Positions 1 through 4,766 of a stretch of 64,000 nt of DNA are shown here, in pieces. Below the pieces are notes generated by a model, which ran no database searches, was not told the origin of the DNA, and saw only the letters and a list, made by a program, of their open reading frames with translations. Position 1 is the first letter of the stretch, and every line of letters starts with the position of its first letter. A program made the translations under genes and the position numbers. The stretch lies in assembly GCF_013167455.1 (NCBI RefSeq), contig NZ_CP038328.1; one strand, 5' to 3'. Source of the DNA: Escherichia coli O157:H7. GTDB taxonomy: Bacteria; Pseudomonadota; Gammaproteobacteria; Enterobacterales; Enterobacteriaceae.

Positions 1-337
1 ATGGCCCCAGATTAGTGATGCTCGCCCGATGATGGATCCTCAAAAGTGTCAGCTTTGCGGTGCATGCTGGCGGGCCTGCGAGCAACAGGTCTTTTCGCTT
101 AACGAAGGCCATTTACAAATAAATGATGCCTTGTGTAACGGATGCCAAAATTGTATTGCTGTTTGTTTTCATCAGGCAATGACCGTTGAATTGACGATTC
201 TACCGGCAAAAATTGTGAATCTTCATGCTAATCGCAAAGTCTGTAAAACCTGTCAAAAATCCTTTCTTACTTTTCAGCAAAATGCGCAAAATTGTCTTTA
301 TTGCCAACGTCATCGTTATGGGATGAGAACACCATAA
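1..337 (+). CDS. partial ORF (5' end outside window), Cys-rich with two CxxCxxCxxxC motifs; identity uncertain, pbpC 3' end expected here by synteny
   Basis: Frame 2 is open from position 2 to TAA at 335-337 (track ORF 29..337 is its ATG-initiated tail); the other two forward frames stop at 13-15 and 30-32; 12 Cys in the last 102 codons; no obvious SD before ATG 29/32. Confidence 0.5.
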   Translation, partial: WPQISDARPMMDPQKCQLCGACWRACEQQVFSLNEGHLQINDALCNGCQNCIAVCFHQAMTVELTILPAKIVNLHANRKVCKTCQKSFLTFQQNAQNCLYCQRHRYGMRTP

Positions 338-477
338 AAGTCGAGTTGTTGCTAAAACTCATTTTATTTTAAAAAAATGTTACCTTCATCAATAGTCAAC
401 GGCTCTGTTGCTCATTATAATCCGCGCCATCTCGTACGCTGGTACAGACAACAACAGAACAATTTACAGAGGTAAAA

Positions 478-909
478 ATGGCTATTGAACGTACTTTTTC
501 CATTATCAAACCGAACGCGGTAGCAAAAAACGTCATTGGTAATATCTTTGCGCGCTTTGAAGCTGCAGGGTTCAAAATTGTCGGCACCAAAATGCTGCAC
601 CTGACCGTTGAACAGGCACGTGGCTTTTATGCTGAACACGATGGAAAACCGTTCTTTGATGGTCTGGTTGAATTCATGACCTCTGGCCCGATCGTGGTTT
701 CCGTGCTGGAAGGTGAAAACGCCGTTCAGCGTCACCGCGATCTGCTGGGCGCGACCAATCCGGCAAACGCACTGGCCGGTACTCTGCGCGCTGATTACGC
801 TGACAGCCTGACCGAAAACGGTACCCACGGTTCTGATTCCGTCGAATCTGCCGCTCGCGAAATCGCTTATTTCTTCGGCGAAGGCGAAGTGTGCCCGCGC
901 ACCCGTTAA
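478..909 (+). CDS. ndk: nucleoside diphosphate kinase
   Basis: Track ORF 143 aa, N-terminus [15 protein letters not shown] and NGTHGSDS motif typical of NDK; SD agagg upstream. Confidence 0.97.
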
Positions 910-3537: not shown

Positions 3538-4656
3538 ATGCATAACCAGGCTCCAATTCAACGTAGAAAATCAACACGTATTTACGTTGGGAATGTGCCG
3601 ATTGGCGATGGTGCTCCCATCGCCGTACAGTCCATGACCAATACGCGTACGACAGATGTCGAAGCAACGGTCAATCAAATCAAGGCGCTGGAACGCGTTG
3701 GCGCTGATATCGTCCGTGTCTCCGTACCGACGATGGACGCGGCAGAAGCGTTCAAACTCATCAAACAGCAGGTTAACGTGCCGCTGGTGGCTGACATCCA
3801 CTTCGACTATCGCATTGCGCTGAAAGTAGCGGAATACGGCGTCGATTGTCTGCGTATTAACCCTGGCAATATCGGTAATGAAGAGCGTATTCGCATGGTG
3901 GTTGACTGTGCGCGCGATAAAAACATTCCGATCCGTATTGGCGTTAACGCCGGATCGCTGGAAAAAGATCTGCAAGAAAAGTATGGCGAACCGACGCCGC
4001 AGGCGTTGCTGGAATCCGCCATGCGCCATGTTGATCATCTCGATCGCCTGAACTTCGATCAGTTCAAAGTCAGCGTGAAAGCGTCTGACGTCTTCCTCGC
4101 TGTTGAGTCTTATCGTTTGCTGGCAAAACAAATCGATCAGCCGCTGCATCTGGGGATCACCGAAGCGGGTGGCGCGCGCAGCGGGGCAGTAAAATCCGCC
4201 ATTGGTTTAGGTCTGCTGCTGTCTGAAGGCATCGGCGACACGCTGCGCGTATCACTGGCGGCCGATCCGGTCGAAGAGATCAAAGTCGGTTTCGATATTT
4301 TGAAATCGCTTCGTATCCGTTCGCGAGGTATCAACTTCATCGCCTGTCCGACCTGTTCGCGTCAGGAATTTGATGTTATCGGTACAGTTAACGCGCTGGA
4401 GCAACGCCTGGAAGATATCATCACTCCGATGGACGTTTCGATTATCGGCTGCGTGGTGAATGGCCCGGGTGAGGCGCTGGTTTCTACACTCGGCGTCACC
4501 GGCGGCAACAAGAAAAGCGGTCTCTATGAAGATGGCGTGCGCAAAGACCGTCTGGACAACAACGATATGATCGACCAGCTGGAGGCACGCATTCGTGCGA
4601 AAGCCAGTCAGCTGGACGAAGCGCGTCGAATTGACGTTCAGCAGGTTGAAAAATAA
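3538..4656 (+). CDS. ispG: 4-hydroxy-3-methylbut-2-enyl diphosphate synthase (IspG/GcpE)
   Basis: Track ORF 372 aa; recognised GcpE sequence; operon position after rodZ. Confidence 0.96.
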
Positions 4657-4746
4657 TAACGTGATGGGAAGCGCCTCGCTTCCCGTGTATGATTGAACCC
4701 GCATGGCTCCCGAAACATTGAGGGAAGCGTTGAGGGTTCATTTTTA
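4657..4746 (+). ncRNA. sroE: candidate SroE-type 3'UTR-derived sRNA in the ispG-hisS spacer
   Basis: 110-nt spacer after the ispG stop holds a GC hairpin (4666-4684) and a terminator-like stem (4695-4700/4734-4739) plus T-run 4740-4746; recalled that SroE maps between gcpE(ispG) and hisS. Confidence 0.4.
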
Positions 4747-4766
4747 TATTCAGAAAGAGAATAAAC

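Follow-up and report, generated by a model that had tools for sequence, protein, structure and literature searches.

The polyferredoxin gene of a DmsABC-like operon between pbpC and ndk in Escherichia coli O157:H7 and its possible role

A polyferredoxin gene at the window edge

The window analysed here is a stretch of 64,000 nucleotides from Escherichia coli O157:H7 (contig NZ_CP038328.1). When its first 1500 bases were translated in the three forward frames, frame 2 was open from base 2 to a TAA stop at 335-337 (111 codons), and frames 1 and 3 of the same stretch contained many stops, including those at 13-15 and 30-32. The frame 2 translation from base 2 to the stop is WPQISDARPMMDPQKCQLCGACWRACEQQVFSLNEGHLQINDALCNGCQNCIAVCFHQAMTVELTILPAKIVNLHANRKVCKTCQKSFLTFQQNAQNCLYCQRHRYGMRTP. 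It contains two CxxCxxCxxxC motifs, CQLCGACWRAC (Cys codons at 47, 56, 65, and 77) and CNGCQNCIAVC (Cys codons at 134, 143, 152, and 164), whose first Cys residues are 29 residues apart (nt 47-79 versus 134-166), and two additional CxxC pairs, CKTC at 242-253 and CLYC at 293-304. The open frame, both motifs, their spacing, and the two extra pairs had been listed in an earlier reading of the sequence by a model (hereafter the original prediction) and are all found where it placed them. It had also pointed to a low local GC content of about 44%, and the measured value for nt 1-337 is 42.7% (GC3 0.37), compared with 52.8% for ndk, 52.6% for rlmN, and 52.0% for the whole window.

The ferredoxin-type assignment made from these motifs is borne out by Pfam. 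The 102-aa tail alone matches Fer4_7 (E=4.1e-07) and Fer4_9 (7.3e-06) and has two separate matches to Fer4, these being matches to the dicluster ferredoxin families PF12838, PF13187, and PF00037 (Fer4); in NCBIfam, the tail has ferredoxin-domain matches only. The expected conservation of the Cys residues is likewise seen, all 12 in the tail being invariant in 63 homologues, the most distant at about 22% identity. Since the tail has both the Pfam matches and these invariant Cys, the motifs are not chance occurrences.

Window positions 1-480 are 100% identical to L001:20001-20480, where L001 is the locus of strain 2017C-4109. The coding sequence annotated in that strain is 855 nt long (284 aa plus the stop), and is named "4Fe-4S dicluster domain-containing protein" (WP_000948584.1). 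It begins 518 nt before the window edge, and codons 174-284 are inside the window. The frame at the window edge is almost certainly the last third of this annotated polyferredoxin gene. Its 3' end occupies 1-337 on the plus strand, with codons W174-P284 at 2-334 and the TAA stop at 335-337. The third tetra-Cys motif of the protein, CQLCGACWRAC at 47-79 (plus strand), contributes C189, C192, C195, and C199, lies within a Fer4_7 match at residues 188-232, and is the first half of the C-terminal 2x[4Fe-4S]-type domain. The fourth, CNGCQNCIAVC at 134-166 (plus strand), contributes C218, C221, C224, and C228, and it is followed by a C-terminal Cys4 site, CKTC-x13-CLYC, at 242-304 on the same strand (C254, C257, C271, and C274). 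The gene is thus one that was already annotated, cut by the window edge, and part of a known accessory operon.

Two other readings had been considered. In the first, the frame would encode an Fe-S-bearing C-terminal tail of PbpC, for which only the gene order of K-12 speaks, with 148 nt between the end of pbpC and ndk. K-12 does have pbpC directly upstream of ndk, as was expected, and the O157:H7 strain does not, since an operon intervenes; in the matching genomes, pbpC is complete (770 aa) and its end is 4.85 kb upstream. The best BLASTP match of the tail to K-12 PbpC had an E value of 4.3, and no match to the PbpC C-terminal domain PF06832 was found for the tail in Pfam, leaving this reading with a negligible probability.

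The second reading, an independent 102-aa small ferredoxin translated from the ATG at 29 (or 32), is very improbable. An ATG at 29 does open a 102-codon frame in a program-made list of open reading frames, and this segment alone contains a complete dicluster domain and the Cys4 knuckle. Further, annotators differ on the start of the gene, since the protein has 192 aa in the UniProt entry Q8XAA2 (O157:H7) and 284 aa in the RefSeq annotation of 379 genomes. However, the frame does not stop at the window edge; it runs on for another 518 nt to an ATG that overlaps the stop of the DmsC-like gene upstream (TAATG). The 284-aa form is kept over its whole length in the 63 homologues, including eight invariant Cys and an ELLxWH motif before Met183, the AlphaFold model forms a single unit (pTM 0.89), and the RefSeq annotation of 284 aa in 379 genomes also argues against a separate short gene. 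The 29-337 open reading frame in the list exists only because the window cuts the gene, and the appearance of an orphan ferredoxin or an odd PbpC tail arises because the window starts inside it. To this extent, the finding mostly clears up an edge artefact.

The pbpC-ndk operon, its distribution and its ancestry

The operon between pbpC and ndk is 4.85 kb long and consists of four genes in the same direction, in the order DmsA-like, DmsB-like, DmsC-like anchor, and polyferredoxin. The A subunit (793 aa) belongs to the DMSO/selenate family (TIGR02166, 1125.8 bits versus a cut-off of 777.7) and has an N-terminal twin-arginine signal, SRRSFL, within PQVSRRSFLQATSA. The B subunit (209 aa) matches TIGR02951 (265.8 bits versus a cut-off of 214.1). 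No NCBIfam family was found for the 273-aa DmsC-like anchor, and the match was supplied by Pfam (DmsC, PF04976, 1.5e-23, residues 1-270). Each of the four annotated coding regions overlaps its neighbour, and the last junction is the TAATG mentioned above. Overlaps of this kind give the layout of a translationally coupled operon, which suggests from the sequence that the four genes form one translationally coupled transcription unit.

The complete pbpC gene ends 163 nt before the A gene, and this gap has a GC content of 22%. It contains a candidate FNR box, TTGATTGTTATCAG (L001:15593-15606, 56-69 nt before the ATG), which differs from the FNR consensus TTGAT-N4-ATCAA at one position. In the 40-kb locus as a whole, FNR boxes are not enriched above chance (4 found versus 1.67 expected), and it is the position of the predicted box alone that hints at anaerobic induction.

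In K-12, 148 nt separate pbpC from ndk. Alignment of the junctions indicates that the alleles diverge on the left within the last ~20 nt of pbpC, where the last six PbpC residues differ, and that the right junction with the sequence shared with K-12 is at window position ~345/346, TTGTTGCTAAAACTC. The operon allele has 4.85 kb where K-12 has ~35 nt. The last bases specific to the operon-bearing allele are at 338-345 (plus strand), as 5041 operon-free genomes match only from 346, and genome matches and the junction alignment identify 346-477 (plus strand) as the ndk upstream region common to all E. coli. A promoter-like site, TAGTCA-17-TATAAT, is present at 393-421, inside this shared part, and no terminator-like site was found between the polyferredoxin stop and ndk. 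The core gene flanking the operon, ndk (nucleoside-diphosphate kinase), is at 478-909 on the plus strand. From ndk, by way of the hyf operon, to tkt, the remainder of the window is core E. coli chromosome, and sroE is the sole Rfam match.

Window positions 1-480 were compared by megablast with 5426 complete E. coli genomes, 5420 of which matched. The first 345 bases are covered in 379 of the 5426, mostly O157:H7, and the other matches, including that of K-12, begin at base 346. Among the 379, the 4.85-kb segment is at least 99% identical in 353, including EDL933 and many O157:H7 strains, and 98-99.5% identical in a few others, for example O157:H16 Santai. K-12 is without the operon; O157:H7 and the other operon-bearing strains keep an extra DmsABC-like respiratory enzyme that is absent from K-12.

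A scan with a family profile of one genome per bacterial species yielded ten loci, which were then compared with the E. coli neighbouring genes by tblastn. The order yfhM-pbpC-A-B-C-polyferredoxin-ndk-rlmN is present in Salmonella enterica subsp. arizonae and diarizonae, Pseudocitrobacter, Enterobacter, Lelliottia, and Huaxiibacter. Two cryptic Escherichia have the same order as far as their loci extend, which is short of rlmN. In Enterobacillus and Chimaeribacter, the four genes are together, and no flanking E. coli gene was matched by tblastn. In most of the genera, identity to the E. coli proteins is ~83% for A, 86-88% for B, 51% for C, and 38-43% for the polyferredoxin, and in the same genera the flanking core proteins are 78-82% (PbpC) and 94-97% (Ndk) identical. 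Between genera, the anchor (~51%) and the polyferredoxin (~40%) therefore evolve much faster than A and B.

The operon corresponds to STM2530-2527 of S. Typhimurium, in which STM2527 occupies the same place as the polyferredoxin gene, last after DmsA-, DmsB-, and DmsC-like genes and between pbpC and ndk. The Salmonella proteins share 38-40% identity with the E. coli polyferredoxin, keep every Cys, and have a predicted fold that superimposes at TM 0.90; this identity is low compared with that of the Salmonella A (83%) and B (86-87%) proteins. A Salmonella preprint counted STM2530-2527 among three putative dmsABC operons, noted its "a fourth gene", reported that STM2530 gave no DMSO-dependent anaerobic growth, and suggested that the operon was gained after the Salmonella-Escherichia split. 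The enzyme that O157:H7 has in common with Salmonella is suspected there of a role in persistence in the gut or in non-mammalian settings. Searches of the literature on STM2527 and on pbpC, ndk, and DMSO reductase found no functional study of the fourth gene.

That acquisition scenario would favour the operon being a recently imported genomic island of the O157:H7 lineage. The restriction of the operon to 379 of 5426 complete E. coli genomes is in keeping with import, as is its GC content (47-50%, compared with 53-56% in the flanks and 22% in the promoter region). Against import, the same site and gene order recur in at least six other genera and two cryptic Escherichia clades, and the identities of A and B track that of the flanking core gene pbpC. 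No annotated integrase, tRNA, repeat, or IS adjoins the operon in L001. In strain ZF8-1, an IS1 replaces everything between codon 36 of the A gene and the last 104 codons of the polyferredoxin gene, which shows ongoing loss of the operon by IS1 deletion. We consider a recent import unlikely. Because the position is shared by many genera, A and B have diverged to a core-like degree, and mobility genes are not annotated beside the operon, an ancestral locus is favoured: this is probably an old enterobacterial operon at the pbpC-ndk site that has been lost from most E. coli.

Architecture of the 284-aa protein and its family

In the full 284-aa protein, Pfam recognises two Fer4_7 domains (residues 22-62 and 188-232) and has no match for residues 65-180 or the C-terminus. 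An alignment of 63 sequences, extending down to ~22% identity, has 20 invariant Cys: C12/22/25/29, C48/51/54/58, C189/192/195/199, C218/221/224/228, and C254/257/271/274. These are predicted to make up a C-terminal Cys4 knuckle and four tetra-Cys sites of the [4Fe-4S] type, in the first of which the first ligand is displaced. The eight Cys of the second domain are also invariant in a 13-sequence alignment. The Pro that commonly follows the fourth Cys is absent from the E. coli tail (C-E and C-F); it follows the first tail motif in 7 of the 13 aligned homologues, and the consensus at this point is CP.

The protein thus comprises a 2x[4Fe-4S]-type domain, an alpha/beta linker of ~115 residues, a second 2x[4Fe-4S]-type domain, and the Cys4 knuckle. 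AlphaFold, run with the 63-sequence alignment, models it as a single body (pLDDT 92.3, pTM 0.89). The linker domain has no recognisable relatives. The Cys4 site is modelled as short beta-hairpins (244-263) and a helix (272-276) with pLDDT above 90, and it resembles a zinc-ribbon or rubredoxin knuckle. Neither a signal peptide nor a twin-arginine motif was found in the seven family N-termini inspected, and the 284-aa protein is presumably cytoplasmic.

A word-indexed search retrieved 14 close clusters only. In an exhaustive profile search of a representative library, there were 76 matches at E<=1e-30, mostly full-length, in a single stretch, and 280-310 aa long. The whole architecture is found in the AFDB in Salmonella, Enterobacter, Citrobacter rodentium, Rahnella, Hafnia, Proteus, Providencia, Gallibacterium, and many Bacillaceae. 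Family members are accordingly from the Enterobacterales and Bacillaceae, with single matches in Gallibacterium (Pasteurellaceae) and Uliginosibacterium. The names of the family clusters are all generic ('4Fe-4S binding protein', 'ferredoxin').

NCBIfam has no specific family for the polyferredoxin, its 63 matches being generic ferredoxin-domain models far below their cut-offs, and NapF is not among the 25 NCBIfam families listed for the full 284-aa protein. For the 102-aa tail, the NapF model TIGR00402 scored 17.7 bits (E=0.0027), compared with a cut-off of 102.2. A Pfam scan of the full protein gave no match to PF02613 (Nitrate_red_del), which places it outside the TorD family.

By sequence and structure, the two ferredoxin domains are best matched by the archaeal polyferredoxins MvhB and FwdF and by E. 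coli HycF, which are electron wires in hydrogenase or formylmethanofuran dehydrogenase complexes. These matches extend over 53-101 residues only, and the matched proteins are without the linker domain and the Cys4 tail.

Gene neighbourhoods and a possible role in Fe-S maturation

The polyferredoxin gene is accompanied by Mo-bisPGD A and B genes in every context examined, including those of distant family members. The gene orders in these are A-B-NrfD-TorD-like-polyferredoxin-TatA (L015), polyferredoxin-radical SAM-TorD-like-A-B-DmsC (L016), cytochrome c-A-B-TorD-like-cytochrome c-polyferredoxin (L017), DmsC-polyferredoxin-TatA (L013), and A-B-DmsC-polyferredoxin-TorD-like (L020). In a Bacillus locus (L019), a signal-less A-B-polyferredoxin cluster is beside a divergent TorD-like-A-B-DmsC-radical SAM cluster. 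One further family member is on a contig of 1.4 kb, which gave no information on its neighbours. A gene for a TorD/NarJ-type chaperone (PF02613) is one or two genes away in L015, L016, L017, and L020, and tatA directly follows the polyferredoxin gene in L013 and L015. In L017, the anchor is absent and c-type cytochromes are present instead, with the polyferredoxin kept. Across these loci, the gene has no fixed place in the electron path and tends to sit among genes for assembly and export. The A subunit that precedes the polyferredoxin gene in Bacillus sp. HMF5848 lacks a signal peptide, so the family is not always linked to Tat export.

In the enterobacterial pbpC-ndk operon, the polyferredoxin gene holds the operon position usually held by a TorD-type chaperone. 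TorD/DmsD/NarJ chaperones are encoded in the same last-gene position and adjoin family members in four loci; they have no sequence match to the polyferredoxin, however, and are not Fe-S proteins. NapF, a protein of ~160 aa, is more similar in kind, as it too lacks an export signal, has four tetra-Cys [4Fe-4S]-type motifs, and is encoded in the operon of a Tat-exported Mo-bisPGD enzyme. It differs in that the 284-aa protein has an additional ~115-residue linker and C-terminal Cys4 site and fails TIGR00402. NapF is cytoplasmic, with four tetra-Cys motifs for labile [4Fe-4S] clusters, and is required for the reconstitution of the NapA Fe-S cluster in Rhodobacter (PMC10609526). It binds NapA in E. 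coli and is attached to the membrane via NapH in Wolinella; several organisms can do without it, and there is debate about what it does (PMC10609526). The dmsABCDE operon of Haemophilus influenzae ends with DmsD and a NapF homologue, DmsE, both of which are regarded as chaperones (PMC8340005). As in the operon described here, an Fe-S protein gene follows dmsABC, beside a chaperone gene, and the A-B-C-polyferredoxin-TorD-like order of L020 is comparable. DmsE differs in being described as a NapF homologue; the 284-aa family fails the NapF model.

By analogy with these proteins, the polyferredoxin may be a NapF-like, operon-specific factor for Fe-S maturation or repair of the DmsA-like/DmsB-like enzyme, a reading that we propose and to which we give an even chance at best. 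It would remain in the cytoplasm, carry four low-potential [4Fe-4S] clusters, and act as an accessory factor rather than a structural subunit. Before Tat export, it would deliver, insert, or reductively repair the Fe-S clusters of the DmsA-like/DmsB-like enzyme, as NapF does for periplasmic nitrate reductase and as DmsE of H. influenzae has been proposed to do. Docking to the membrane anchor from the cytoplasmic side is possible. The argument for such a role comes entirely from gene neighbourhood and analogy, and the position of the 284-aa protein outside NapF (17.7 versus 102.2 bits for the tail) and outside TorD by sequence is against it, as are the signal-less A subunit of the Bacillus locus and the fact that even NapF can be dispensed with in several organisms.

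Alternatively, the polyferredoxin could be a true fourth subunit, a cytoplasmic electron-transfer module on the DmsC-like anchor through which electrons would pass between a donor or acceptor in the cytoplasm and either the quinol site or the periplasmic enzyme. Its gene directly follows and overlaps the anchor gene, and its ferredoxin domains resemble those of the electron-wire polyferredoxins. Anchor and polyferredoxin diverge at similarly high rates, which could equally reflect a specific contact between the two for electron transfer. The Bacillus gene, after signal-less A and B genes and with no anchor gene in the same direction, is also compatible with a subunit. Further, a 560-aa entry from Cronobacter condimenti reads as DmsC fused to the polyferredoxin, although the two genes overlap by one base and the fusion may be an artefact of gene calling or a frameshift. 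The anchor-free enzyme of L017, with its c-type cytochromes, still has a polyferredoxin by a TorD-type gene, and in L016 the gene is upstream, with radical-SAM and chaperone genes and away from the anchor. To our knowledge, DmsC/NrfD-type anchors contain no haem or other cofactor to pass electrons across the membrane. A fourth subunit is therefore, in our estimate, a fairly unlikely but serious contender, about half as probable as the maturation factor.

Returning to the maturation factor, the 284-aa family could constitute a distinct, unnamed class of cytoplasmic Fe-S maturation or repair factor for DmsABC-type molybdoenzymes that arose independently as an analogue of NapF. This broader proposal is more tentative than the operon-specific one, and we would sooner doubt it than accept it. 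At the level of the gene itself, the fourth gene is a member of a conserved polyferredoxin family found consistently with Mo-bisPGD enzymes. If it does encode a NapF-like maturation factor, it would be a new player in molybdoenzyme assembly, and this might explain why STM2530 expressed alone gave no activity.

Junction and loss of the operon

Comparison of the pbpC 3' ends in the operon-bearing E. coli strain 2017C-4109 (L001:15478-15498) and in K-12, which lacks the operon (L002:2964-2984), revealed different final six codons, ...VHFSFQ* in operon-bearing strains and ...VKFVMQ* in K-12, which places the left junction of the operon indel inside pbpC on the evidence of this alignment. In E. coli ZF8-1 (L021:3156-4330), most of the operon is replaced by an IS1 element, and the remnants consist of a 36-codon stub of the gene for the DmsA-like protein and a 104-codon 3' polyferredoxin pseudogene adjoining ndk. 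This replacement is an instance of operon loss.

Sequences flanking the operon

An FNR-like box (L001:15593-15606; TTGATTGTTATCAG, one mismatch) is located 56-69 nt 5' of the DmsA-like start, within a promoter gap of 22% GC. The box is not part of the window and precedes window base 1 by 4.4 kb. The presence of this box in the promoter gap suggests that the operon is under anaerobic control. FNR-like boxes counted across the whole L001 locus were not statistically enriched. At the other end, no terminator-like hairpin was found between the polyferredoxin stop and ndk (window 338-477), and therefore transcription of the operon could continue into ndk. The stretch shared with K-12 contains a promoter-like site (TAGTCA-17-TATAAT, window 393-421).

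Divergence, neighbours and database entries

Divergence within this single operon is very uneven at the protein level. Between genera (L005-L011, operon loci of other genera, versus L001), the DmsA-like and DmsB-like products are about 83-88% identical, whereas identity falls to about 51% for the DmsC-like anchor and to about 40% for the polyferredoxin, which retains all of its cysteines. Genes encoding radical-SAM proteins of about 440 aa (PF04055 and Fer4_12) are found beside polyferredoxin and Mo-enzyme genes in two distant loci, L016 (6634-7974) and L019 (10347-11669). An AlphaFold database entry from Cronobacter condimenti (K8A6I6, 560 aa) reads as a DmsC-polyferredoxin fusion, which could be genuine or could stem from a frameshift in the gene call. 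For the O157:H7 polyferredoxin, the older UniProt entry (Q8XAA2) is only 192 aa long, indicating that its start site has not been annotated consistently.

Remainder of the window

Positions 1-480 of the window are identical to strain 2017C-4109. This identity does not extend over the whole 64 kb, within which there is probably an indel between the two. The gene content is that of the ordinary core genome, from ndk to tkt and including the hyf operon. The small RNA sroE, a known feature, is encoded on the plus strand between ispG and hisS (window 4656-4747; Rfam RF00371, 116.6 bits).
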